A stretch of 64,000 bases of DNA, taken from positions 63,487 through 127,486 of the forward strand of contig CAKPDM010000002.1 of assembly GCA_934148995.1 (NCBI GenBank), written 5' to 3'. Positions 4,604-64,000 of this stretch are shown here, one piece after another. The position numbers and the translations under genes were made by a program. The notes beneath the pieces are model-generated. The model was given only the letters and a program-made list of their open reading frames with translations, was not told where the DNA came from and searched no databases. How positions within the stretch are numbered: position 1 is the stretch's first letter; every line of letters begins with the position of its first letter. The DNA comes from an uncultured Bacilli bacterium. GTDB taxonomy: Bacteria; Bacillota_I; Bacilli_A; RF39; UBA660.

Positions 4604-7600
4604 GTGAAAGTATTTATTTTAGATGATTATAAAGTTAATTCTTATAAATTACCACATAAAGTAGAAGATTCTTATTTGATTAATTATACTTATAATAATG
4701 AAGAAAAAAATATTAGCGTCCAATCTGTCAATGGAATCTGGTACATACAAAGTAATGAAAGTATTTCTATCATAGATAATGGTCGAACTGTAGATTCATG
4801 TCAATTAACAAACTATAAAATTGTAAGACTGTTATTTACTGATTCAGATTCTAGTGTGATCTTAGTTTGTGTTCCTTCAACCATTACTAATAAAAAAGAC
4901 TATTCACTAACAAATATTAAAGACTTAAAGATTGGTTCAAGCCAAAATAATAACATAATTTTTCCAATTCTTGATCCTGAACATATGGTGATTACAAAAG
5001 AGAATAATATATGGCAACTAACTGTTAAAAATAATAATATACCGATTTATGTAAATAAAAAAAGAGTAGCAACAACTAATTTAGTGTTTGGTGATGAAAT
5101 ATTTATTCTTGGTTTAAAGATAATTTGGCTTAATAGTTGTATTAGAATTAATGATATTGACAACTTAGTAATGATTAATGGACTTGGACAAACAACTTTA
5201 CATAATGAAGATAATAGTAGTTATACAAAAGTAACAATGAGAGAAAAAAAGATAAACTTATATAAAGAAAATGAGTATTTTTTTCATACCCCAAACCTAA
5301 AACCAGTAATAGAAGAAGTTATTATTGAAATAGAAAATCCTCCTCTTAAAGACAAAGATATGCAATTGCCATTATTCTTAAGCATAGGAGCTTCTGCCGT
5401 ATTTTCTATTTCATCATTAGCTACTTGTCTTTTTTCATATATAAGTATTGTGCAAGGAAAAAGTACTTGGGATGAAGAAGCAATGAACTTTATAATTGGT
5501 ATTTCTTTACTAATTGGTAGTTTACTATTTCCAATATTGACTCACTATTATGAGAAAAACGCTAATAGAAAAAGAGAAGTTAAACGTCAAAAAAAATACA
5601 GTCAATATCTTGAAGAAAAGAAGAAACTAATTGAAACAACCATTAATAATCAAAAAACGATATTAAAAGAATTATATTTAGGAGCAGAAGAATGTCAAAG
5701 AATATTAGAGACTAAGAATTCTAATTTATGGAGTAGAGAGATAAATGATAAAGATTTTTTGATGGTAAGACTTGGTATTGGTAAAAAGAAAGCAAATATA
5801 GTTATAGATGCACCCAAAAAACAATTTTCAATAGATGATGACAATTTGAAAGATCAAGCAAGTGAAATTATTAACTCTGATTTATCTATGACTGATGTAC
5901 CAATAACCGTTTCTTTGGTAGAATATCCAATTTTTCCAATAATACTAAATACTAATAAAAGAAAAGCTTGTGTAGAAGCTATTATGTTACAGTTAATGAC
6001 CTATTATAGTAGTTCTGACTTAAAGCTTGTTTTCTTAGTAAGTGAAAAAAATAGTGAGATTTGGAATCAATTTAAATATTTATCCCATTGTCTTGATGAA
6101 CAAGGAAAGACTAGATTGTTTGCTTATAATGAAGAAGAAGCAAAAGCTATATCTTACTATCTAGAATCAAAATATCAGGAGAGATTAAACTTTATTAAAG
6201 ATATTCCTAGTAATTCTGATATAGATAAAGTTGATAATAAAAAAGATTTTTATCAGATGTTTCCTAATTATTACTTAATAATTACTGATAACATCTTAAA
6301 ATATCGAAACTTAGAAATAATAGAGGAAATATTTAAATCAAATTCTAATTACGGATTTTCTGTTTTAATTTTTGAAAATGCAATGAGAAATTTACCAAGT
6401 AAATGTAATTATTTTAGTAATATCTCTGATAACGAAGCTGGCTTATTTAGTAAAGATGTAAGTAGTAATAGTTTATCTGTATTTTCACCAGAGTTTTTTT
6501 TAGGCGATATGAAACCATATATTAATATTGTTTCTAATATTCCTACTGAAAACTGTGATGAAACTGCAAGTTTACCGCAAACTTTAGAATTTTTAGAAAT
6601 GTATAAAGTTGGCAAAATAGAACAGTTAAATATTGCCACTAAGTGGCAAGAAAATGACCCAACATTATCATTAACAGCCCCAGTTGGTGTCCATTCAAAT
6701 GGAAATTTATTTGAACTTAATTTACATGAAAAAGAACATGGACCACATGGTTTAATAGCTGGTTCAACTGGTAGTGGTAAAAGTGAATTTATTATAACTT
6801 ATATCCTTTCTATGTGTATAAACTATAGTCCAAAAGAAGTCCAATTTGTCTTAATAGACTATAAAGGTGGCGGACTCGCTGGCGCTTTTGAAAATCGTGA
6901 GAAAGGTTTAAGAGTACCTCATATAGTTGGAACAATAACTAACTTAGATACTTCAGAAATGAATAGAACACTAGTATCTATTAGAAGTGAACTAAAAAGA
7001 AGACAAAGAATTTTCAATGAAGCTCGAGACATGCTTGGAGAAAGTACAATTGATATTTATAAATATCAAAAATATTATCGAGAAGGTCAAGTGAAAGAAC
7101 CTATTGCCCATTTATTTATTATATCTGATGAGTTTGCCGAACTAAAGAGTCAACAACCAGACTTTATGGACGAGCTTGTTTCAACTGCTCGTATTGGTCG
7201 TTCACTTGGCGTTCATTTAATATTAGCAACACAAAAGCCAAGCGGTGTAGTTGATGATCAAATTTGGTCAAATGCTAGATTTAAAGTCTGCTTGAAGGTT
7301 CAATCAGAAGCTGATAGTCAAGAAATGTTACGAAGATCAGAAGCTGCTACTATTAAAGAAACAGGTAGATTTTATTTACAAGTTGGTTATAATGAAATAT
7401 TTGAAATAGGTCAATCTGCTTGGAGCGGTGCTAAATATATACCATCAGATGTTGTGGAGAAAAAAATAGATGATTCTATAAACTTTATTAATAACAATGG
7501 AACAGTTATAAAGAGTATTAATAATACAATAAGAAAAGATGAACAAAAAGATTATGGTGAACAATTAACTAATATAGTAAAATATTTGATTAATATGGCG

Positions 7601-9184
7601 CTTAAAGAAAATATTTCTACTAATCAATTATGGTTGCCATCTATACCTAATGAGATATATTTGGGTAATATTGTCAATAAGTATAATTTTAAGGCTTCTA
7701 GTTATGATTATAAAGTAATAGTTGGAGAATATGATGATCCAGAAAACCAGGAACAAGGTCTTTTAACATTAGATGTAGCAAATAGTGGTAATATTCTAAT
7801 ATATGGTATAACTGGAAGTGGTAAAGAAAACCAACTAGCTACCATGCTTTATTCACTCTGTATTTATCATTCTCCCGAAGAAGTTAATATCTATGTAATG
7901 GATTTTGGTGCTGAGGTATTGAAAGTATTCAATAGAATGCCACAAGTCGGTGATTATGCTTCTTCTTATGATAATGAAAAGGTAGAGAACCTTTTACAGA
8001 TGCTTGAAAGAGAATTAAATAAAAGAAGGACAATTTTGTCTGACTATGGTGGTAGTTTTATTGCTTATAATAATAAAGATACAGATAAACTTCCATTAAT
8101 ATTTATTGTCATCAATGGTTATGAATCTTTTCTTGAAACGTATGCTGGCCTTGAAGATGAATTTAACAAATTATTTAGAGAAGGAAATAAATATGGAATA
8201 ATTTTTGCAGTAACTGCTTCTGCAACTAATGCAATGGCCACTAGAGTATCGCAAAACTTTACCACAATTTATGCTCTAAGATTTAATGATGATTTTGAAT
8301 TTAGATATATTCTAAATGCACCAGTGAATTTTGTGCCTAAGAAAGTCTTTGGTAGAGGTTTAACTAATTTTAAAGAGAAAGTTGTTGAATACCAAACTGC
8401 TTATATAAATTTATTTGACATGATAAATGACACTGTTAAAGAAAGTGCAGCTAGGTTAGCCTCTTATTATAATATTAAAGTAAAATCAATTCCTACTATT
8501 CCTAGTAAAGTCAATGCTGAAACAATGGCAAAATATATAGAAAATTTAACAAATCTACCGGTTGGTGTTAACTTTGAAGATGCAACTATTTCCACTTTTG
8601 ATTTCAAGAAAAATAAAATAACCCCAATAGTGGGAAATGATTTATTAATTAATACAGGTTTCTTAAATGAACTTTATAAAGAGTTTGTTCGGTTACCAAA
8701 TACAATAGTATTGATGCTTGATCTTTTATACACTGTGTCTATACCGAGTGAGGTTACTTTCACTAGTGATCTGGTAGAATTTGTTACAACAATTAAAGAA
8801 ATCTTAAATAAAGAGGATCAGCCCGTGGATGACAGGGTAATAATAATAGCTGGTCTATCGAAAGTTTTTAATGATTCTAATATTGAAGAACAAATAAAAA
8901 AGGATTTATCTAATATTTTAAAAGAAGCGGATAGATTTACAACAACTAGTTTTATCATTATTGAAGAGTATCAAAAATATCGTAATTTAATGGTAGAAGA
9001 ATGGTATCAGGACAGAGTGTCTTCAGCAAACGGAATATGGATTGGTGAAGGTTTTGAAAATCAAATAGCATTTCAGATAGATTCTGTAGGAGATATAAAT
9101 ATGCAAGAATACTCAACGGATGTTGGTTATGTTATTAGGAATGGTAAATTTGAAGTTATTAAAACAATTAGTGGAGATGAATAA
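4604..9184 (+). CDS. essC: type VIIb secretion FtsK/SpoIIIE-family ATPase EssC (YukB-like)
   Basis: 1526 aa with a GTG start. Two N-terminal FHA-like segments are followed by two TM helices (LPLFLSIGASAVFSISSLATCLF and FIIGISLLIGSLLFPIL). Three ATPase modules follow. D1 has Walker A GSTGSGKSEF and Walker B LFIISDEFAEL plus LILATQKPSGVVDDQIWSN. D2 has GITGSGKENQ. D3 has no P-loop. Confidence 0.92.
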   Translation: MKVFILDDYKVNSYKLPHKVEDSYLINYTYNNEEKNISVQSVNGIWYIQSNESISIIDNGRTVDSCQLTNYKIVRLLFTDSDSSVILVCVPSTITNKKDYSLTNIKDLKIGSSQNNNIIFPILDPEHMVITKENNIWQLTVKNNNIPIYVNKKRVATTNLVFGDEIFILGLKIIWLNSCIRINDIDNLVMINGLGQTTLHNEDNSSYTKVTMREKKINLYKENEYFFHTPNLKPVIEEVIIEIENPPLKDKDMQLPLFLSIGASAVFSISSLATCLFSYISIVQGKSTWDEEAMNFIIGISLLIGSLLFPILTHYYEKNANRKREVKRQKKYSQYLEEKKKLIETTINNQKTILKELYLGAEECQRILETKNSNLWSREINDKDFLMVRLGIGKKKANIVIDAPKKQFSIDDDNLKDQASEIINSDLSMTDVPITVSLVEYPIFPIILNTNKRKACVEAIMLQLMTYYSSSDLKLVFLVSEKNSEIWNQFKYLSHCLDEQGKTRLFAYNEEEAKAISYYLESKYQERLNFIKDIPSNSDIDKVDNKKDFYQMFPNYYLIITDNILKYRNLEIIEEIFKSNSNYGFSVLIFENAMRNLPSKCNYFSNISDNEAGLFSKDVSSNSLSVFSPEFFLGDMKPYINIVSNIPTENCDETASLPQTLEFLEMYKVGKIEQLNIATKWQENDPTLSLTAPVGVHSNGNLFELNLHEKEHGPHGLIAGSTGSGKSEFIITYILSMCINYSPKEVQFVLIDYKGGGLAGAFENREKGLRVPHIVGTITNLDTSEMNRTLVSIRSELKRRQRIFNEARDMLGESTIDIYKYQKYYREGQVKEPIAHLFIISDEFAELKSQQPDFMDELVSTARIGRSLGVHLILATQKPSGVVDDQIWSNARFKVCLKVQSEADSQEMLRRSEAATIKETGRFYLQVGYNEIFEIGQSAWSGAKYIPSDVVEKKIDDSINFINNNGTVIKSINNTIRKDEQKDYGEQLTNIVKYLINMALKENISTNQLWLPSIPNEIYLGNIVNKYNFKASSYDYKVIVGEYDDPENQEQGLLTLDVANSGNILIYGITGSGKENQLATMLYSLCIYHSPEEVNIYVMDFGAEVLKVFNRMPQVGDYASSYDNEKVENLLQMLERELNKRRTILSDYGGSFIAYNNKDTDKLPLIFIVINGYESFLETYAGLEDEFNKLFREGNKYGIIFAVTASATNAMATRVSQNFTTIYALRFNDDFEFRYILNAPVNFVPKKVFGRGLTNFKEKVVEYQTAYINLFDMINDTVKESAARLASYYNIKVKSIPTIPSKVNAETMAKYIENLTNLPVGVNFEDATISTFDFKKNKITPIVGNDLLINTGFLNELYKEFVRLPNTIVLMLDLLYTVSIPSEVTFTSDLVEFVTTIKEILNKEDQPVDDRVIIIAGLSKVFNDSNIEEQIKKDLSNILKEADRFTTTSFIIIEEYQKYRNLMVEEWYQDRVSSANGIWIGEGFENQIAFQIDSVGDINMQEYSTDVGYVIRNGKFEVIKTISGDE

Positions 9185-9187
9185 TAT

Positions 9188-9445
9188 ATGAAAAACAAAG
9201 TTTTAGTAGATTTAATCGTTCCTGAAATAGATGAAGAATATTCTGTGTATCTACCTATAAATAAGAAAATAGGGAATATTATAATATTACTAAATAAAGC
9301 TATTTCAGAAATGACAAATGGTGATTTTAAATTATCTTCGACTAATTCGTTATATAATAAAGATACATGTGAACAATATAGTTTTGATTCTTTATTATTT
9401 AATACGAATATTAGAAATGGAACTAGGTTGATACTGTTGTCGTAG
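9188..9445 (+). CDS. esaB: YukD/EsaB-like ubiquitin-fold T7SS accessory protein
   Basis: 85 aa, starting 3 nt after the essC stop. The size and beta-grasp-like pattern fit: the N-terminal strand VLVDLIVPEIDEEYSVYLP and a C-terminus NIRNGTRLILLS with no GG. The position directly after essC is also typical. Confidence 0.7.
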   Translation: MKNKVLVDLIVPEIDEEYSVYLPINKKIGNIIILLNKAISEMTNGDFKLSSTNSLYNKDTCEQYSFDSLLFNTNIRNGTRLILLS

Positions 9446-9450
9446 TATTT

Positions 9451-9470
9451 GGAACTTAGTTCCTTTTTTT
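9451..9470 (+). terminator. short hairpin plus T-run after esaB (weak terminator or attenuator)
   Basis: GGAAC-TTA-GTTCC followed by TTTTTTT. Confidence 0.4.
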
Positions 9471-9581
9471 GATGTTAAAATCTGTAAAATTATTTTGTTT
9501 ATCTTGAGAAAACTAGGATAGTGTGACATACTTAATATAGTAGAAGGTAACTTTTACTATGATGGTGAGAGAGGTAAAAAT

Positions 9582-9875
9582 ATGGCTGATGTTTCAGGAA
9601 TTAATAGAGAAGAACTGCTTGTTTTAAGTAAGATGTTTTTGAAGTATCATGACGATATTAAAGATCTTTTTCTAGAGTATAAAAAAACGATTGGCGATAC
9701 TTCTAAATATTATCAAGGTGAAACAGCAGAGGCCTTCAGAAATAAGTTTAATGATTTTAACTTGAATCTAGAGCTTGTTTTAAAAAGTTTTCTTGACTAT
9801 AGTGAAGCATTAACTAAAATAGTTAAAAACTATGACGAATTAACCTTAAACTCATCTATGGGCAAATATCAATAA
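9582..9875 (+). CDS. small helical WXG100-like protein (turn motif YQG), candidate T7SS substrate
   Basis: 97 aa with no TM segment and a good SD (GAGAGAGG). Central YYQGETAEAFRNKF sits where W-x-G is expected. The N-terminal DVSGIN motif is shared with the next two ORFs. Confidence 0.6.
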   Translation: MADVSGINREELLVLSKMFLKYHDDIKDLFLEYKKTIGDTSKYYQGETAEAFRNKFNDFNLNLELVLKSFLDYSEALTKIVKNYDELTLNSSMGKYQ

Positions 9876-9894
9876 GGATGGAGGAGGTGAAACA

Positions 9895-10227
9895 ATGGCA
9901 TTAACTATGAAAAAAGCAGATGTTGCTGTATCTACTTCAGGAATCAATGACTTAGAAAAAGCAATTTTAAAAGAAGTACAAGAGGCTAGTGAAGTATGTT
10001 CAGTTAATAGTAAAGAATATAAGGCTTTAGTTGCAACTCTTAGACAATATTGGAGTGGTGAAGACTGCAATAATTATATTGCTGACTTAAACCAAGCAGT
10101 AAAAGATCTTAATACTTCAGTTAGTTATATTAATACATCTATCAAAGGTGGATTAGAAAAGTATAAAAATGAATTTGCTGCTTTCCAACAAAGTAACTAT
10201 AAACAAGGTACTACTAAAATTAAATAG
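9895..10227 (+). CDS. small helical WXG100-like protein (WSG), candidate T7SS substrate
   Basis: 110 aa with a strong SD (GGAGGAGGTGA). Has a central QYWSGEDCNNY and an N-terminal AVSTSGIN. Confidence 0.65.
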   Translation: MALTMKKADVAVSTSGINDLEKAILKEVQEASEVCSVNSKEYKALVATLRQYWSGEDCNNYIADLNQAVKDLNTSVSYINTSIKGGLEKYKNEFAAFQQSNYKQGTTKIK

Positions 10228-16633: not shown

Positions 16634-17884
16634 TTACTTTTCCTTCTTTTTATCTTTGTTTAAGTTTCGATATAAGTTGTATGGTAATTGATTTATAACA
16701 AAATCAAATTCTCCAACATACTCACTAATGATTGGATTGAAACCAAGTTTCATTTCATTTAAACCAGAATATTCTGTTATATGTTCAAAGTCTCCACTTA
16801 CAGCATTAAAATTAATATATTTTAAATTCATCTTTTTATAGGTAGAAATTAATTCCCATTTCATAAGATAACTTGGATTTAAAGATTTGAATTTAGAATT
16901 TAGACCTTCAATGATTAAAAAAGCAGAACGGTCATATCTTAATACAAGAGATGATGCAATTAGAATACCGTTTGGATTTTCTTTTAATAAATTAGTAGCC
17001 CATACCAAATTTTTCTTATAAGTATTTATTAGTTTATCTGACTCGATTTTTTCGTTTATTAATTTCTTTCTGGTATTAGCATTCTTTGCTTGTTGAATCT
17101 TGTAAGCAAGATTATCATTTATTTCCATTTCTCTTTCATATAATTTTTTACTATTGATAACGAAAGTTTCCGTATTTAATTTAGCAAAGTATAAATCAAT
17201 ATCACCCTTAAAATTTTTATAAAATTCTTGATAATATTCAATTGGCCTTGAATACTTTTTCTTAACAAAATCGTAAAAGAGAGGAAGATTTTGTTCGTTA
17301 CCTTTAATAATTTCCACACCACTACGCATTGCTTTTTTAATTTTATAACGAACACGCTTTTCGAAAGTATTATAGATAGCATCAATATCTTTATTAAGAG
17401 AGATGACAGCTTCAAATCTTGGCTTTTCTGTTTCAAAGAAAAGCGTAGGTCCATGATATTCCCAGTGACTAGCTTTTAAATTTTCTACGATAATGTTTGA
17501 TTCTGGATTAATATTTAATATTTTTCCGTTAGCATTGTGTAGTGCTACAGGAACAACTGGATCAATTTTTAATAACATAAATCCTTGTTTCGCTAGAAGC
17601 TTTTTTAATCTTTCTGTAAATTCTTTTAACAAAGCGCCATTACTATAATCAAATAATAATCCTCTAGGGGCATAGGCGATTTTGTAGTTCATAAAGACTT
17701 CTTTATAGAGTAATAAAGATGCTCCAATAAGATTTTCCATCTCATCAATAATACCGAGATAGTGTATATCATAGCCAAACTTTTTCATAATTTTGCCATA
17801 TGAACTAGATTGATAATAACTACGATACTTATGTTTTAGCGCATATTTATCAAATTCTTTTTCTTCTAGTGTGATTATTTTCAT
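16634..17884 (-). CDS. FemAB-family peptidoglycan interpeptide-bridge aminoacyltransferase (FemX/MurM-like)
   Basis: 416 aa. Two GNAT-like halves are separated by a helical insertion (KLYEREMEINDNLAYKIQQAKNANTRKKLINEKIESDKL). The N-terminus FDKYALKHKYRSYYQSSSYG is typical of the family. Confidence 0.8.
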   Translation of the reverse strand: MKIITLEEKEFDKYALKHKYRSYYQSSSYGKIMKKFGYDIHYLGIIDEMENLIGASLLLYKEVFMNYKIAYAPRGLLFDYSNGALLKEFTERLKKLLAKQGFMLLKIDPVVPVALHNANGKILNINPESNIIVENLKASHWEYHGPTLFFETEKPRFEAVISLNKDIDAIYNTFEKRVRYKIKKAMRSGVEIIKGNEQNLPLFYDFVKKKYSRPIEYYQEFYKNFKGDIDLYFAKLNTETFVINSKKLYEREMEINDNLAYKIQQAKNANTRKKLINEKIESDKLINTYKKNLVWATNLLKENPNGILIASSLVLRYDRSAFLIIEGLNSKFKSLNPSYLMKWELISTYKKMNLKYINFNAVSGDFEHITEYSGLNEMKLGFNPIISEYVGEFDFVINQLPYNLYRNLNKDKKKEK

Positions 17885-17993: not shown

Positions 17994-19346
17994 ATGTTTG
18001 AAAATAAAAAAATATTAGTTCTTGGTATGGCAAGAAGTGGTTATGAAGCAGCAAAGTACTTAGTTAAACGTGGTAATACAGTTATCTTAAATGATGGCGG
18101 AAGTGCTGAAAAACAAAAAAAAGAACAAATCGAAGAATTAGAAAAATTAGGTGTCACTTTAATATTTGGAAGTCATCCAGATGATTTGTTAGATGACACA
18201 TTTGATTATTTAATAAAGAATCCTGGAATTCCAATTGATCATAAATATGTTTTAAAAGCTCGTGAGCTCAATATAGAAGTTATTAATGCAGCAGAAATGG
18301 CTTATCGATTATTGCCAGATGACGTTACATTAATTGGAATAACTGGTACTAATGGAAAAACAACTACAACAACTTTAACTTATGAAATGATAAAAGCTAG
18401 TGGTAAACGTGTTCATTTAGCAGGAAATATTGGTTATCCATTAATCAGCTTTTTAGATAAATTAGAAGCAAATGACATTATAGTAATGGAAGTTTCTTGT
18501 CAACAATTAGAAAATATGAGTGAGTTTAAACCACATATCGCTTTGATGACTAATCTTAGTGTAGCACATATAGACTTTTTAAAAAGCTATGAGAACTATA
18601 AAAGAGTAAAACTTAAATTATTTAAAAATCAAACGCAAGATGATATAGCTATACTAAATATTGAAAATGAAGAAGTAATGGCAGGAACCAAAAACATAAA
18701 AGCAGTAACTAAATATTTTTCTAGTAAACGTGAAATAAATGGGGCTTATTATAAAGATGGTGCATTATGGTATTATGGTGAGAAAATATTAGATAGGGAT
18801 AAGTTCTTGTTAGCTGGTATGCATAATGTTGAAAATGCTTTAGGAGCAATGATGATTGCTAAAGAAGTAGGCGTAGATAATGAGTCTATTGTGAAAGTAT
18901 TAACTACCTTTAAAGGAGTTGCTCATCGTTTGGAATTTGTTGATGAAATAGCCGGAGTAAAATATTATAATGATACAGAAGCTACTAATACAAAGTGTAC
19001 ACAAATCGCTTTAAATTCATTTAATTGTGATACAATTCTTATTTTGGGAGGTTTAGAAAGAGGACAAGACTTTCATGACTTAGATAATTATATTAAAAAT
19101 GTTAGAACAATAGTAGGAATAGGTCAATGTCGTGATAGAGTTAAGACTTATGGTGAAGAATTAAATATAAATACAGAAATTTTTGAAACTTTAAGCGAAG
19201 CAATGAAATATATAGAAACAATAGCTACAAGTGGTGAAGTTGTATTATTAAGTCCTGCTTCTGCTTCTTGGGATCAATATAAACAATGTGAAGATCGTGG
19301 AGATGAATTTAAAGAAATAGTCAAAAAACTTAGAAAAAAATCTTAG
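17994..19346 (+). CDS. murD: UDP-N-acetylmuramoyl-L-alanine--D-glutamate ligase
   Basis: 450 aa. Has VLGMARSG at the N-terminus, the P-loop GITGTNGKTTTT and GVAHRLE. Confidence 0.92.
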   Translation: MFENKKILVLGMARSGYEAAKYLVKRGNTVILNDGGSAEKQKKEQIEELEKLGVTLIFGSHPDDLLDDTFDYLIKNPGIPIDHKYVLKARELNIEVINAAEMAYRLLPDDVTLIGITGTNGKTTTTTLTYEMIKASGKRVHLAGNIGYPLISFLDKLEANDIIVMEVSCQQLENMSEFKPHIALMTNLSVAHIDFLKSYENYKRVKLKLFKNQTQDDIAILNIENEEVMAGTKNIKAVTKYFSSKREINGAYYKDGALWYYGEKILDRDKFLLAGMHNVENALGAMMIAKEVGVDNESIVKVLTTFKGVAHRLEFVDEIAGVKYYNDTEATNTKCTQIALNSFNCDTILILGGLERGQDFHDLDNYIKNVRTIVGIGQCRDRVKTYGEELNINTEIFETLSEAMKYIETIATSGEVVLLSPASASWDQYKQCEDRGDEFKEIVKKLRKKS

Positions 19347-59837: not shown

Positions 59838-60188
59838 ATGGCATATAGAAAATTAGGTGTTGATAATAAACATAGACGTAGTATGTTAGCAACTCTTACC
59901 AAACAATTAATTATGAATGAACAAATTGAAACTACTGAAACAAGAGCAAAAGAAGTCAGAAAAATGGCTGAAAGAATGATTACTTGTGGTAAGAAAGGTG
60001 ACCTAGGTTCACGTAGAAGAGCTTTAGCTTTTCTTCACAATGATAAAAAAGTGGTTGACAAAGTGTTCAACGAATTAGCTCCTCGTTATGCTAACCGTAA
60101 CGGTGGATATACACAAATTATTAAGTTGGGTGAACGTCGTGGAGACGGAGCTTTAACTGTTATCTTAAAATTAGTAGAAGAAGCTTAG
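59838..60188 (+). CDS. rplQ: 50S ribosomal protein L17
   Basis: 116 aa with [20 protein letters not shown] and [17 protein letters not shown]. Confidence 0.96.
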
Positions 60189-60201
60189 TCTTCTTTTTTT
60201 T
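60176..60201 (+). terminator. terminator ending the alpha operon
   Basis: AGAAGA-AGCTTAG-TCTTCT followed by TTTTTTT. Confidence 0.55.
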
Positions 60202-60247
60202 GTCTATATTTGTTATACTGTTGTTAGGAATGGTATGGTGATATTGA

Positions 60248-60595
60248 ATGACAGAAGTAATAGTATTTTTATTAACGTTTGTTGTGCTATTTTTAATTTA
60301 TGAATTGATACTTGTTAGAAAATATAAAAAAGGAAAAAGTGATAAGCGACCAGTAGAAGTTACCTATTTACTTAATAGATACAATTTAAATTTAAAGAAA
60401 GTTAACTATAAAAAACTACTTAATATAGTTAGTCTTGTTAGTTCTTTTGATATAGCAGTTGTTGTAACAGTTATGGGACTTACGGATAATTTTCTATTAG
60501 AAATACTAATTGGATGTTTTTTAACTATAATATTAATATTAAGTAGTTATTCTATAGTTGGTAAAATATATCAAAAGAAAGGATATACCAAATAA
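60248..60595 (+). CDS. small membrane protein, function unknown
   Basis: 115 aa with three predicted TM helices and no recognisable motif. Confidence 0.5.
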   Translation: MTEVIVFLLTFVVLFLIYELILVRKYKKGKSDKRPVEVTYLLNRYNLNLKKVNYKKLLNIVSLVSSFDIAVVVTVMGLTDNFLLEILIGCFLTIILILSSYSIVGKIYQKKGYTK

Positions 60596-60624
60596 AATAT
60601 AGACCAGTGTGTCTATATTTTTTG
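60594..60624. terminator. bidirectional terminator (its stem contains the stop codon of the sortase gene)
   Basis: ATATAGAC (60597-60604)-CAGTGT-GTCTATAT (60611-60618), with an A-run before and a T-run after. Confidence 0.7.
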
Positions 60625-61173
60625 GTTATAAATTACTAATTGTTTAGAACTATCATTCTTACTACAGGTAGTTAGAATTAATTGTTCTTCACTAGATTTT
60701 ATGATTTCAATCTTACCAGTTTTATCTTGTTCTTCTATCTTTTTAACTTTATACACTAATTCTTTATTATTGATAGATAATCTAACTTTATCATTTTCTT
60801 TTAACTCATTAAGTCGATTAAAGTAAGCAAGTTTACCATTACCTGAGTGTGCTGCTAGAATAATTAATGATTCATTATTTAACTCTGAGTTATTTAAAAT
60901 AGTTACGTGTTCTTCAACATTATTTCTTTTATCATTGATATCATAAATATTTTCATGTAGATTAATCTTATCAATTGTTAGGGTTGCTAGAATATTGTCA
61001 TTATTGTTATTTTTTACATCTATTTCGTTACTTATTTGTCTAGCAGTATTTTCTACTCTTTCGATATTTTCAGTTTTAATAACTTTAGATTTAGAAATAT
61101 GTACATTCTTTTGATAAATCATAAAACAAAAAATCACATATGCACTAAGAAGAAGTGTTAATTTCTTCTTCAT
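60613..61173 (-). CDS. small membrane-anchored sortase-family transpeptidase (atypical: no Arg after the catalytic Cys)
   Basis: 186 aa with an N-terminal TM helix. It has LTIDKINLHENIY, the His motif IILAAHSG and the Cys motif QLILTTCS. The tail is SKNDSSKQLVIYNQKI. Its ATG overlaps the adhesin stop (TAATG). Confidence 0.75.
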   Translation of the reverse strand: MKKKLTLLLSAYVIFCFMIYQKNVHISKSKVIKTENIERVENTARQISNEIDVKNNNNDNILATLTIDKINLHENIYDINDKRNNVEEHVTILNNSELNNESLIILAAHSGNGKLAYFNRLNELKENDKVRLSINNKELVYKVKKIEEQDKTGKIEIIKSSEEQLILTTCSKNDSSKQLVIYNQKI

Positions 61174-62636
61174 TAAATAGCACTTCCTAGTAAAGCAATG
61201 GGAATATTAATATAAGTATTTGGAACATCAATGATTATAATTTCTTCTTTCTTAGGTTCCTCATTTTTATAGTCATATATTTTATATTTATAATCTTGTT
61301 TTTCTTTAATAAATACTTCAAAAGGTTCTACTTTACTGTAACCTTCAGTAGTGGTTTTTTGTTTGATAGTATAGTGACCATATGGTAATTCAATACTAGC
61401 TAACCCATTTTCATCTGTTGTGATAGTTTTTACTAGTTCCTTATCTTTATTATAAATTTCAAAAGTGACATCTTTTTCACTTTGCATTAATTGTTTGTCA
61501 CCATAACTTTTTTCAATAAGTATTTTACCTTTAATAACTTCATTTTCTAATACTTTGCTTATAGTAGTATTATTTTCATCAAATGTAATTTCATAGAAGG
61601 TATCATCCTTGATGTAACCAGTTCCAGCTTTAGTTTCTTGTAAATAATAAGTACCAAAATCAATAAATGATTTATCACCTTCACCAATTATTTCTGCTTT
61701 TCCTTCATCATTGAATGTTATATCAGTGACTTTTTCTTTTTTATTATTGTATAGAGTAAAGATAGTTCCTTTTAAATCAGCTTCGCCTTGACCTTTGAAT
61801 TCTTTTGTATCTTTATCAACTTTAGTTAGATTTAATTTTAATTGATAAAAACAGAAAGTAACTGGTACTTCCATCGCTTTACTTGAACCAATGCTTACTA
61901 ATCGCTGTGAGATACCATTTGCATAGTATAAAGCTCTTTCTCTTCCTAAACCATAATTACTATAGAAAATTTGAGTATGGCAGACAGAATGATTTCTTTT
62001 AATAGAAAAAGTATTTTCATTTAAATTACTTTCATTATCTTTGATAGTGGTAAAATTCTTTAATATTCCATTAGTATCAGTTATTGTTATTGTTTTTCCA
62101 ATTAATGAATTATACTTGTTATTAGCAAAACTAGGAGTTTTTTTACTATCACTAATCAATCTTTCAATCTCATTCTTTTCTTCAGTAAAAATGTTAACTC
62201 TGGTACCATTTAAAGTATCAGTGAAATAAAATTCATTATTTTTATCTACTGTTTCCCAAATCATCATTTGTGTTATGGCATACCATTTAGGGTCAGTATG
62301 ATTTTTATAAAGGTATCCGAAGTTAACTAAGTCTGTTACTCTCTGCCAAGTATTACTATCATAACTTACTTGTGATATCATTCCATCATAAGTGTTATTG
62401 TTAGGTTGAAAAACTTTAAAAGGCTCTAAGCAATAGGCGATAGAATTATCTGTTGAACTTTTGTAAAATCTAGCTTTCTGGTAATGTTTCATTTTTGTAC
62501 TTTTATCATATCTCACCATATATATGCCATCAATATACTCTCCTTCATAAAAGGTATTTGTTTTGGCATAAACTTTAGTGGTATTACAGATAAAAAATAC
62601 ACTTGTTAATGTTAAGAATAATAATATTTTTTTCAT
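61173..62636 (-). CDS. secreted surface adhesin or pilin-like protein: N-terminal thioester-type (TED-like) domain plus two SpaA/CnaB-like Ig-fold domains
   Basis: 487 aa with a signal peptide (MKKILLFLTLTSVFFICNTTKVYA). It has AYCLEP (Cys69), GYLY and AITQMMIWE (Gln123). Two repeats are of the type GTIFTLYN...GTYYLQETKAGTGY and VTFEIYNKD...DENGLASIELPYGHYTIKQKTTTEGY. The C-terminus is DVPNTY-INIPIALLGSAI. Confidence 0.7.
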   Translation of the reverse strand: MKKILLFLTLTSVFFICNTTKVYAKTNTFYEGEYIDGIYMVRYDKSTKMKHYQKARFYKSSTDNSIAYCLEPFKVFQPNNNTYDGMISQVSYDSNTWQRVTDLVNFGYLYKNHTDPKWYAITQMMIWETVDKNNEFYFTDTLNGTRVNIFTEEKNEIERLISDSKKTPSFANNKYNSLIGKTITITDTNGILKNFTTIKDNESNLNENTFSIKRNHSVCHTQIFYSNYGLGRERALYYANGISQRLVSIGSSKAMEVPVTFCFYQLKLNLTKVDKDTKEFKGQGEADLKGTIFTLYNNKKEKVTDITFNDEGKAEIIGEGDKSFIDFGTYYLQETKAGTGYIKDDTFYEITFDENNTTISKVLENEVIKGKILIEKSYGDKQLMQSEKDVTFEIYNKDKELVKTITTDENGLASIELPYGHYTIKQKTTTEGYSKVEPFEVFIKEKQDYKYKIYDYKNEEPKKEEIIIIDVPNTYINIPIALLGSAI

Positions 62637-62686
62637 AAATTCCCTCCTTTTTCTTAACGGTTTTTACAATAGCACAACTACAATTT

Positions 62687-62810
62687 GAAATGCAAAGGGG
62701 GAAAATTGCAAATTCAGCCCTATTTTTGGCCGAAAATGGTGCTGGCTACCCCTGAAAATGCAAAATTCGGCAATTTTTATGCCTGAATTTGCAAAATTGG
62801 CATAATTTAA
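62687..62810. repeat. cluster of TGCAAA(A)TT(C)GGC-type direct and inverted repeats in a divergent intergenic region
   Basis: Repeat copies are at 62707-62727, 62758-62778 and 62790-62809, with a partial copy at 62691. A perfect 12-bp inverted repeat pairs TTGCAAATTCAG (62706-62717) with CTGAATTTGCAA (62783-62794). G+C is about 41% by hand count. Confidence 0.55.
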
Positions 62811-62834
62811 AAAAATTTATTTTTATGCTACAAT
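62806..62834 (+). promoter_or_regulatory. candidate fhs promoter
   Basis: TTTAAA (62806-62811), 17-nt spacer, TG-c-TACAAT (62826-62834). Confidence 0.45.
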
Positions 62835-62860
62835 AGTTCTGTAAACGGAGAGTGATATTA

Positions 62861-64000
62861 ATGACAGATATAGAAATATGTGACCAATATGAATCTTTAC
62901 CAATTCAAAAAGTAGCAGCAAAGCTAGGCTTAAATGATGGTGATTTAATACTATATGGAAAAGATAAAGCTAAAGTGGTTAAAAATGTTAAGGAAAAGAG
63001 AGGAAAACTAATCTTAGTAACAGCAATGAGTCCCACTCCTTATGGAGAAGGTAAAACAACAGTCAGTATAGGTTTAGCTGATGCTTTTGCTAAGCTAGGA
63101 GAAAATGTTTGCTTAGCATTAAGGGAACCATCACTTGGACCAGTTTTTGGACTTAAAGGAGGAGCTACTGGTGGAGGTTATAGTCAAGTTGTACCTATGA
63201 CTGATATAAACTTACATTTCACTGGGGATTTTCACGCAATAACTTCTTGCAGTAACTTAGTTAGTGCAGCAATATATAATCATATTGAAAAAGGTAATTC
63301 ACTAGGATTTTCAAAGATACTTTTTAAACGTGCTGTTGATATGAATGATAGAAGTTTAAGAAACATTGAATTGACTTGTAATAAAGAAAAATATACTGAC
63401 CATTATACAATTACGTCAGCTAGTGAAATAATGACTATTTTCTGTTTAGCTAAATCTTTTACTGATTTAAAAGAACGACTTGGTAACTTACTACTTGGTC
63501 TTACTAGTGATGATAAACCAATATTAGCTCGTGATTTAAAACTAGAAGGAGCTTTAACTGCTTTGCTAAAAGATGCCTTTCTTCCTAATCTTGTTCAAAC
63601 CTTAGAAGGAACTCCAGCTTTTATTCATGGTGGACCATTCGCTAATATAGCACACGGAACAAGTAGTGTCACTTCTTTAAAACTAGCTCTTTCTTTATCT
63701 GATTATGTAATAACAGAAGCCGGCTTTGGAGCAGATTTAGGTGCTGAAAAGTTTATGAATTTGTTTTGTAATATAGCAGATGAAAAACCAGATGCTATTG
63801 TATTAGTAGTGACGATTAGATCAATACTATATCAGGGAGAAGGAGACTTTACTAAAGGTCTTTCTAATGTAGAAGCCCATCTTGAACATCTTTATAACTA
63901 CAATGTGCCAGTAATAGTTTGTTGTAATCATTTTGCTACTGACGATTCTTCATATGTTGAAAAACTAAAGAACTTTGCGGAAAAAACAAATTATCAATTT
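62861..64000 (+). CDS. fhs: formate--tetrahydrofolate ligase, N-terminal 380 codons (runs off the window)
   Basis: Not in the ORF track because there is no stop in the window. My translation begins MTDIEICDQYESLPIQKVAAKLGL. It contains MSPTPYGEGKTTVSIGL, EPSLGPVFGLKGGATGGGYSQVVPM and FIHGGPFANIAHG. Confidence 0.93.
   Translation, partial: MTDIEICDQYESLPIQKVAAKLGLNDGDLILYGKDKAKVVKNVKEKRGKLILVTAMSPTPYGEGKTTVSIGLADAFAKLGENVCLALREPSLGPVFGLKGGATGGGYSQVVPMTDINLHFTGDFHAITSCSNLVSAAIYNHIEKGNSLGFSKILFKRAVDMNDRSLRNIELTCNKEKYTDHYTITSASEIMTIFCLAKSFTDLKERLGNLLLGLTSDDKPILARDLKLEGALTALLKDAFLPNLVQTLEGTPAFIHGGPFANIAHGTSSVTSLKLALSLSDYVITEAGFGADLGAEKFMNLFCNIADEKPDAIVLVVTIRSILYQGEGDFTKGLSNVEAHLEHLYNYNVPVIVCCNHFATDDSSYVEKLKNFAEKTNYQF

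Follow-up and report, generated by a model that had tools for sequence, protein, structure and literature searches.

In a 64,000-nucleotide (nt) stretch of DNA from an uncultured Bacilli bacterium (contig CAKPDM010000002.1, positions 63,487 to 127,486; the window in what follows, with positions counted from its first letter), the minus strand at 60613-62636 holds two open reading frames, one for a secreted adhesin of 487 residues and one for a sortase of 186 residues. We read this segment as a two-gene, translationally coupled operon for surface display, with a probability of about 0.7 for the identity of its parts and a lower one for the chemistry proposed below. The adhesin carries a thioester domain (TED) and ends in a sorting motif of the form [VI]P[ND]T-x, and the sortase has a glutamine, Gln178, at the position of the catalytic arginine. 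Judged from sequence and predicted structure, the likely function is that a Cys-His-Gln sortase anchors a Class II thioester adhesin to the wall.

Two overlapping genes for an adhesin and its sortase

Both open reading frames were found where a preliminary description of this DNA had placed them, and the sequence features that it listed (AYCLEP, AITQMMIWE, VPNTY, TAATG, LAAHSG, LTTCS and a sortase C-terminus devoid of Arg) are all present. The two genes are as follows.

61173..62636, minus strand: adhesin coding sequence, 487 residues, a secreted Class II thioester-domain (TIE-type) protein (open reading frame, Pfam, AlphaFold2, Foldseek)
60613..61173, minus strand: sortase coding sequence, 186 residues, its start overlapping the adhesin stop (open reading frame, PF04203, AlphaFold2)

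At the TAATG junction the last A of the adhesin TAA (61173-61175) is also the first base of the sortase ATG (61171-61173), and a ribosome-binding site, AAGGAGGG, lies 7 nt ahead of the adhesin ATG. Searches for the TED and SpaA/CnaB folds, suggested earlier as a check, found both: Pfam matched the TED (E-value 1.2e-8) and two SpaA domains (1.5e-19) in the adhesin as well as PF04203 in the sortase (5.9e-16), and a Foldseek search with the adhesin model matched the Bacillus anthracis adhesin BaTIE (6fwv) across its full length (2e-26).

A glutamine in place of the catalytic arginine

The sortase features that bear on its class and catalytic residues, all on the minus strand, are listed here.

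61102..61170, minus strand: N-terminal membrane anchor, residues 2-24, a helix in the model (predicted local distance difference test score, pLDDT, 87-95)
60847..60849, minus strand: predicted catalytic His109 (AAHSG), invariant in 77 sequences and aligned to the His of solved sortases
60715..60723, minus strand: Lys151-x-Gly153, start of the beta6/beta7 substrate-recognition loop, invariant and aligned at Pro163-Gly167 of Staphylococcus aureus SrtA
60664..60666, minus strand: predicted catalytic Cys170 (LILTTC), invariant, at the end of beta7 (strand 164-170)
60640..60642, minus strand: Gln178 at the start of beta8, placed in the catalytic-Arg position by conservation and alignment, 8 residues past the Cys

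The AlphaFold2 model of the sortase (pLDDT 85.9, with beta7 at 164-170 and beta8 at 177-185) matched more than 50 sortase chains in Foldseek at probability 1.00, which confirms the sortase fold. Two general sortase models also scored above their cut-offs, PF04203 at 58.8 bits (cut-off 26.6) and TIGR01076 at 49 bits (cut-off 39.35). Every matching NCBIfam class model stayed below its cut-off: class C at 50.1 against 160, SrtD at 44 against 140, class D at 40 against 165, class E at 29.7 against 160, GN at 25.2 against 158 and class F at 13.8 against 166. The NCBIfam class A and class B models gave no match, for class A none at E-values up to 1.

The His on beta4 and the Cys of the TLxTC signature are both in place, in LAAHSG (His109) and LTTCS (Cys170), and neither varies among the 77 sequences. 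The Arg expected at the start of beta8 is absent, and no Arg occurs anywhere C-terminal to Cys170 (SKNDSSKQLVIYNQKI); Gln178 stands there instead. This substitution is a property of the family, which holds at least 641 cluster representatives at an E-value of 1e-30 or better among 5,354 profile hits, and of which we inspected 374 sequences. A first protein search found the motif TTC-x7-Q-L-[VI], with its Gln, in 120 of 120 homologues; an exhaustive profile search added 135 of 136 further representatives, and all 118 members of a distant subclade of 217-residue enzymes have it too. Pooled, Gln occupies the position in 373 of 374 sequences and Arg in none, so that the earlier proposal of a small, dedicated sortase lacking the catalytic Arg is borne out. 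No Arg is invariant at any position in the family, and its sole invariant basic residue is Lys151, within the K-x-G motif. The single member without the Gln (P0337) reads …YTCYPNDKSSYLVV, as though the Gln had been deleted, and may reflect a sequencing error or a degenerate copy.

The column itself was assigned by alignment. Because hhalign against S. aureus SrtA and HMMER against class C sortases both end just past the Cys and leave the Arg column unassigned, it was taken from a profile built on the C-terminal region alone. In that profile Gln178 falls, without gaps, opposite the Arg of the B. anthracis sortase 2kw8 (SKRYVV) and opposite Arg192 of Streptococcus agalactiae (group B Streptococcus, GBS) SrtA (TCTDPEATERIIV). 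The spacing of 8 residues between Cys170 and Gln178 equals that between Cys184 and Arg192 in the GBS enzyme (PMC3166054). By conservation and alignment, Gln178 is thus the residue in the predicted catalytic-Arg position. According to a review, a His-Cys-Arg triad is found in all sortases, with the Arg binding substrate and perhaps stabilising the oxyanion (PMC8225981); our literature searches returned no description of a natural sortase without Arg.

The preliminary description had put a Lys in the Arg position, and this part of it did not survive. A related explanation would have a lysine, either Lys177 or the invariant Lys151, supply the missing charge, which would make the enzyme an ordinary sortase with Arg conservatively replaced by Lys. 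Lys177 sits just ahead of Gln178, where it is the most frequent residue (90 of 117 and 85 of 120 sequences), and Lys151, invariant in the 77 sequences, lies within the substrate-recognition loop. However, Lys177 is only about 75% conserved: roughly one member in four has Y, M, N, L, T, F, E, Q, C, A or W instead, and the 217-residue subclade has Thr throughout, variation that would be unexpected of a catalytic residue. The alignments set it one place ahead of the Arg, against a Glu of GBS SrtA and a Lys of 2kw8, and they set Lys151 against the Pro of the canonical VxPxD segment, at a long distance in sequence from the Arg. We therefore regard a lysine substitute as unlikely and retain Gln178 as the counterpart of the Arg.

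A Class II thioester domain in the adhesin

The features of the N-terminal half of the adhesin are these.

62565..62636, minus strand: Sec signal peptide, residues 1-24, MKKILLFLTLTSVFFICNTTKVYA (helix 2-17 in the model, with a predicted cleavage site)
61842..62564, minus strand: Class II TED with a beta-sandwich insert, about residues 25-265 (Foldseek and profile match to 6fx6)
62430..62432, minus strand: predicted thioester Cys69 (YCLE), invariant in 61 of 61 sequences and aligned to SaTIE and BaTIE
62256..62273, minus strand: TQMMIW (Thr122-Trp127), the TQxxΦW motif with the non-bonding Gln123; Gln123 and Trp127 invariant, role as described in PMC6194298
61905..61907, minus strand: Gln244 (GISQRLV), predicted bond-forming Gln, invariant in 61 of 61 and aligned to BaTIE Gln266

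In the alignment of 61 adhesin sequences that underlies these counts, Ala24 of the signal peptide is invariant too. A phmmer search of the Protein Data Bank matched the adhesin to the TED of SaTIE (6fx6) and to BaTIE (6fwv), both solved as thioester adhesins of Class II. The AlphaFold2 model made with the 61 homologues has a pLDDT of 90.1 with disorder confined to residues 462-487, and besides its full-length match to BaTIE it aligned with the SaTIE TED at a target TM-score (TMt) of 0.74 over 253 columns. The profile alignment to 6fx6 spans positions 54-275.

Each sequence mark of a Class II TED has a counterpart in the adhesin. The [YFL]CΦζ motif is Y68-C69-L-E, within AYCLEP (Cys69 codon TGC), and aligns with IAFCIEP of SaTIE and IAYCLTP of BaTIE; the TQxxΦW motif is T122-Q-M-M-I-W127, within AITQMMIWE (Gln123 at 62268-62270); and the weak ΦQζΦΦ motif is S-Q244-R-L-V. 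The beta-sandwich insert, which in Class II TEDs has about 75 residues and a slipknot topology between helix alpha3 and strand P (PMC6194298), is indicated by the match to 6fx6 and by a Cys-to-Gln spacing of 175. Cys69, Gln123, Trp127 and Gln244 are all invariant. These results support the assignment of the adhesin to the TIE-like Class II thioester proteins, and with it the earlier claim of a thioester-type adhesin.

The choice of glutamine had to be revised. Gln123 had been named as the thioester partner of Cys69, and it belongs to the TQxxΦW motif, whose Gln and Trp pack against the thioester and are non-essential for the bond (PMC6194298, Miller et al.). In the solved Class II TEDs the bond-forming Gln lies on strand Q, past the beta-sandwich insert and 171-204 residues after the Cys, as in the pairs Cys71 and Gln266 of BaTIE, Cys296 and Gln467 of SaTIE and Cys88 and Gln292 of EfmTIE86 (PMC6194298). 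The Gln244 column falls on chain residue Gln235 of 6fwv in the profile alignment, and this is BaTIE Gln266 because BaTIE Cys71 is chain residue 40. Since Gln244 is thereby aligned with the crystallographic partner of Cys71, the predicted thioester is Cys69-Gln244.

Two stalk domains follow the TED.

61533..61841, minus strand: stalk domain 1 (CnaB/SpaA), about residues 266-368, with the triad Lys272/Glu334/Asn365, all three invariant
61266..61532, minus strand: stalk domain 2 (CnaB/SpaA), about residues 369-457, with Lys376, Asp455 and Gln426 (alignments to BaTIE)

In the first isopeptide triad of BaTIE, Glu343 is matched by Glu334 and Asn373 by Asn365, and BaTIE Lys384 is matched by Lys376; the invariant Lys272 is, by position only, the likely counterpart of BaTIE Lys297. 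Stalk domain 2 has Gln426 (61359-61361), invariant in the 61 homologues, where BaTIE has the catalytic Glu443. Its Lys/Asp pair is retained (Lys376 at 61509-61511, Asp455 at 61272-61274), and Glu387 of the same domain is likewise invariant.

A non-canonical sorting motif and its tail

The adhesin ends in ...EEIIIIDVPNTY-INIPIALLGSAI, which comprises the following two features.

61212..61226, minus strand: sorting motif VPNTY (Val471-Tyr475), from column conservation; sortase chemistry predicts cleavage after Thr474
61176..61211, minus strand: 12-residue C-terminal remnant INIPIALLGSAI, too short for a membrane span, without a basic tail and disordered in the model

The motif is strongly conserved and is no product of chance. 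Across the 61 aligned sequences its columns hold V in 59, P in 61, N in 51 or D in 9, and T in 61, with a variable position 5 (H/Y/S/G/R/K). A VPNT-type C-terminus is kept by 118 of 120 adhesin homologues, the set dividing into VPNT (103), VPDT (11), IPNT (3) and VPHT (1). At position 5, the 118 have S (41), H (27), Y (22), G (10), R (8), K (6), A (3) or N (1). The family consensus is thus [VI]P[ND]T-x and not the LPXTG pentapeptide, and just 10 of the 118 have Gly at position 5; none of the NCBIfam anchor models matched the adhesin, and our literature searches found no paper that combines 'VPNT' with sortase. The sorting signal is therefore non-canonical, as had been proposed. The peptide IIDVPNTYINIPIALLGSAI was named as a candidate ligand for sortase residues 58-186.

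The hydrophobic span and positive tail that usually complete such a signal are missing here, where 12 residues without Lys or Arg follow Tyr475. They are present in distant relatives (…LILPTYLIVKKKFS; …IITLLGIVIIAAGVSYVYKNGKAR), and those of the Onthousia-like group end in VPNTSTEDNNYHLLSLILPTYLIVKKKFS. Other clades have hydrophobic tails of 17-22 residues in which basic residues are frequently lacking. In the clade of the window (L001-L009 and P0121-P0132, 70-98% identical) the tail is fixed at 13 residues with the pattern [YH][IL][NGD]IP[IFK][AV]L[LIV]G[SCY][AS][IV]. Because distant members keep the full helix and basic tail, this short tail is derived and not a family trait, so that the absence of an anchor, as first described, holds for the window clade but does not extend to the family.

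Cysteines recur near the ends of some of these tails. One large adhesin subclade (P0183-P0239) has short hydrophobic tails without basic residues, many of them ending in Cys (…IIC, …ILC, …LLC), and a Cys at -3 (ALIGCSV) is found in most of the close clade of the window, though not in the window adhesin.

Conservation and inheritance of the pair

Conservation of the gene pair was followed in 59 loci from reference genomes, namely metagenome-assembled genomes (MAGs) of uncultured gut 'Bacilli'/'Tenericutes', Clostridium sp. CAG:451 and Candidatus Onthousia. The scan that located them used an alignment of 9 sequences, one of 33 sequences having given no conserved stretch. The adhesin and sortase genes overlap by 1-44 nt in all 58 loci in which both were called, and the upstream gene ends in [VI]P[ND]T-x in 57 of the 58, the other (L057) having VPYT. 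This universal overlap suggests coupled synthesis. Among 500 open reading frames of at least 150 residues in the 59 loci, a VPNT-type C-terminus occurred in no gene but the one directly upstream of the sortase, and neither an LPXTG-type tail nor a second sortase was found. Divergent substrates range from 485 to 896 residues with 2-6 SpaA domains, all with a TED, and keep the motif down to about 30% identity. The distant 217-residue subclade shows the same pairing, its substrate ending in EVPVPDTASSSLIITLLGIVIIAAGVSYVYKNGKAR, a complete tripartite signal. Together these sequence comparisons support a co-inherited, presumably cognate pair, in agreement with the initial suggestion that enzyme and substrate had co-evolved.

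The cassette adjoins fhs in nearly all loci, even where adhesin identity has fallen to 35-40%. Such synteny across deep divergence indicates that this chromosomal unit is old, has been passed on vertically and is no island, and for the same reason an adhesin of a mobile or conjugative element, as on pLS20, was rejected. The family has so far been found solely in uncultured gut Bacilli, in all members seen.

Fusion of the two genes was also considered. A programmed frameshift or fusion of adhesin and sortase was rejected, as the sortase frame is open for just 0-18 non-conserved codons 5' of its start. One metagenomic protein of 623 residues (P0284) runs from a TED through two SpaA domains, VPNTS and a short hydrophobic stretch directly into a Gln-type sortase domain, and is either a natural adhesin-sortase fusion or an assembly frameshift.

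Two loci of the distant subclade (L060 and L061) have other neighbours. Upstream (1-2450) lie a signal-peptidase-like (S24/S26) gene, a DUF5305 gene and a serine recombinase, and downstream (8681-9880) a gene for a 399-residue protein that has several membrane helices and whose tail is a long, charged coiled coil. A relative (L084, OZ006970.1) is represented by a circular MAG chromosome of 1,517,539 bp with a MurD 75% identical; it is not among the fetched sortase loci.

A proposed mechanism and its alternatives

We propose the following route for the pair. The adhesin would be exported by Sec, and the sortase would recognise [VI]P[ND]T, cleave after Thr474 by means of Cys170 and His109, hold the adhesin as a Cys170 thioacyl intermediate and pass it to an amine of a peptidoglycan precursor. 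The Cys69-Gln244 thioester, with the TQxxΦW motif (Gln123, Trp127) predicted to pack against it, would then sit exposed on the cell wall, ready to bind a ligand of host or mucus covalently. In the active site, the carboxamide of Gln178 might take over the hydrogen bonding of the Arg guanidinium, whether in substrate positioning or in oxyanion stabilisation. Activity of the enzyme, the point of cleavage, the acceptor, the part played by Gln178 and the means by which the short-tailed substrate stays near the sortase are inferred. A substrate without retention elements would imply another form of encounter between enzyme and substrate, which could be co-translocational capture or docking aided by translational coupling.

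Several points weigh against this route. In Foldseek the nearest folds of the sortase are the class C, pilin-polymerising enzymes, with those of classes A, E and D next. For S. aureus SrtA, both Arg and His have been reported as absolutely required (PMC3166054). The longest uncharged run in the 13-residue tail is 10 residues in the window adhesin and 7 in L003-L009, where a Lys interrupts it; because of this Lys, no membrane span is possible in most members of the window clade. The classical membrane-retention step therefore cannot work there in its described form.

The first of these points raises the question of a pilin-type polymerase that would join adhesin monomers head to tail, or onto another pilin, and not to the wall. 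Class C enzymes are the best matches in HMMER as well, the sortase gene is clustered with its substrate like those of pilus sortases, and pilin-like CnaB/SpaA domains, with an E-box-like YYLQETKAGTGY, make up the substrate. However, the hallmarks of class C are absent from the enzyme: there is no lid (no DP[FWY] in residues 25-60) and no C-terminal membrane helix, the protein ending at residue 186, just past beta8 and 8 residues after Gln178. The YPK pilin motif occurs in 0 of 120 adhesin homologues. The only lysines conserved in at least 90% of adhesins are K117, in the TED, and K272 and K376, which are the predicted isopeptide lysines. Each locus has a single substrate gene with no second sortase or pilin nearby. 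With neither a YPK motif nor a free conserved Lys, pilus polymerisation was set aside as quite unlikely.

The short tail bears on a second alternative, in which a repurposed sortase would act as a C-terminal processing protease that releases the adhesin, or would transfer it to an acceptor other than peptidoglycan (lipid, glycopolymer or membrane protein, for example); the short-tail clade would be the foremost candidate. A precursor with a tail of 13 residues would not stay in the membrane, the enzyme has an altered set of catalytic residues, and related orders have been described with remodelled or reduced walls (PMC10868615). Yet in distant members the wall-sorting signal has all three of its parts, and motif and Gln-type enzyme are unchanged; His and Cys, too, never vary, which fits an acyl-transfer enzyme, and FemAB and MurD are present, so that we hold repurposing to be improbable.

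Lastly, the want of an Arg reported to be essential could mean that the sortase is a catalytically dead pseudo-enzyme, for instance a chaperone or dock, whose pairing with the adhesin is structural only. Against this, AAHSG, TTC and Gln178 do not vary down to about 29% identity in so large a family, and the cleavable-type P-x-T motif is strictly co-conserved in the substrate, constraints that dead enzymes usually lose. Of the alternatives considered, we find this one the hardest to credit, and wall anchoring by an active Gln-type enzyme remains our preferred account.

For the acceptor, the window offers two further genes. A FemAB-family peptidyltransferase (16634-17884, minus strand; E-value 2e-71) is encoded beside MurD (17994-19346, plus strand), and MurD orthologues are found in 35 of the 41 closest cassette-bearing assemblies. 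With FemAB and MurD present, peptidoglycan with a cross-bridge should be available as acceptor. The pair also points to interpeptide-bridged peptidoglycan in an organism whose relatives are often labelled 'Tenericutes'.

Sequences around the operon

The adhesin gene diverges from fhs (plus strand) across a shared upstream region.

62637..62851, minus strand: divergent intergenic or promoter region between fhs (plus) and the adhesin gene (sequence, repeats and conservation in L001-L009)

This region holds several boxes containing TTTGCA and a 29-nt imperfect inverted repeat with arms at 62706-62734 and 62766-62794, both kept across L001-L009; the boxes and the repeat may be operator sites. Promoter-like sites were not above chance in the promoter scan, no intrinsic terminator matched the consensus, and Rfam gave no family in 60100-63000. 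Convergent with the sortase gene, 60248-60595 (plus strand) encodes a predicted membrane protein of 115 residues that keeps its position in L001-L009 at 73-98% identity and has no significant family match. Farther off, 4604-9184 (plus strand) encodes a protein of 1,526 residues with FtsK/SpoIIIE ATPase domains (EssC-like), followed by an open reading frame for 110 residues (9895-10227, plus strand) without a Pfam match; the two may form a type VII secretion locus.

Significance and comparison with known systems

Taken by sequence, this is a large, apparently undescribed clade of Gln-type sortases dedicated to Class II thioester adhesins with a VPNT-x signal. Whether it deserves the rank of a class is a more tentative matter, to which we give somewhat less than even odds: a previously undescribed class with a Cys-His-Gln site, a neutral carboxamide in place of the 'universal' Arg and a dedication to Class II thioester adhesins, reading [VI]P[ND]T-x with a nearly free P1', maybe the sole sortase system in reduced-genome gut Bacilli orders reported without srtA/B, and in the window clade acting on a substrate stripped of membrane-spanning and basic retention elements. 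The role of the sortase Arg, oxyanion stabilisation or substrate positioning, has been described tentatively only (PMC8225981, PMC3166054), and a strongly conserved natural Arg-to-Gln clade is a ready-made experiment on it. The Gln-type enzyme may also give a ligase with a new motif (VPNT-x, permissive P1') useful in protein engineering, and the short-tail variant raises the question whether a sortase signal must include membrane retention at all.

For the small-genome gut Bacilli related to Mycoplasmatales, a lack of sortases and hence a small number of surface proteins has been inferred, and a 2024 survey inferred the orders RFN20 and ML615J-28 to be without srtA/B though some of their families are walled (PMC10868615). 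If the window lineage belongs to RFN20 or ML615J-28, the Gln-type enzyme is plausibly an overlooked sortase. At least some such lineages would then keep dedicated display of a covalent-binding adhesin, adjacent to fhs over deep divergence, and this conservation suggests that attachment to host or mucus is central to their lifestyle.

Among adhesins, the closest likeness is to BaTIE (B. anthracis BA5258, 6fwv), SaTIE and EfmTIE86, which share with the window adhesin a signal peptide, a Class II TED with insert, a CnaB stalk and a C-terminal sortase signal (PMC6194298). Alignment matches the Cys, the TQxxΦW motif and the bond-forming Gln, as well as the first isopeptide triad, in which Glu and Asn align and the Lys is placed by position. 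BaTIE, however, has LPATG with a classical anchor and is served by a housekeeping sortase, whereas the window adhesin has VPNTY, a 12-residue remnant and a sortase gene of its own that overlaps it. It also differs from BaTIE in having just two stalk domains and Gln426 in place of the catalytic Glu of the second.

Among enzymes, class A sortases with short beta7/beta8 loops (GBS SrtA 3rcc, S. pyogenes SrtA, 2kw8) have in common with the window sortase an N-terminal membrane helix, an eight-strand barrel and no lid, and GBS SrtA shares the 8-residue step from the Cys to the Arg column and aligns gaplessly through beta8. They differ in Arg for Gln, in LPXTG for VPNT-x and in lacking a gene that overlaps a single substrate. 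Class C sortases (7cg9, 2xwg, 6ixz/7d6t) provide the best fold and hidden Markov model (HMM) matches and are likewise encoded beside their substrates; unlike them, the window sortase has no lid, C-terminal helix or Arg, its substrate has no pilin motif, and its score is 50 bits against 160. Class D enzymes that read LPNTA(TN) (B. anthracis SrtC, 2ln7) and class B SrtB, which reads NPQTN, resemble the window system in a motif with Asn at position 3 or a residue other than Gly at position 5, and in being small enzymes, each dedicated to a few substrates; among the NCBIfam models the SrtD-type one ranks second for the window sortase. The window sortase differs from them in lacking the Arg and scores far below the cut-offs (44 against 140 and 40 against 165), and unlike the class D and class B motifs, that of the window family has Val or Ile at position 1 and an essentially free position 5 (S/H/Y/G/R/K/A/N).

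A last comparison is with TIEpLS20 of plasmid pLS20 (PMC8092201), which is also an adhesin of Class II TED and CnaB domains without a canonical LPXTG and transmembrane sorting signal. TIEpLS20 is plasmid-borne, acts in conjugative mating-pair formation, has no sortase and shows no dependence on one, whereas the window adhesin is chromosomal, syntenic with fhs and always accompanied by its own sortase.

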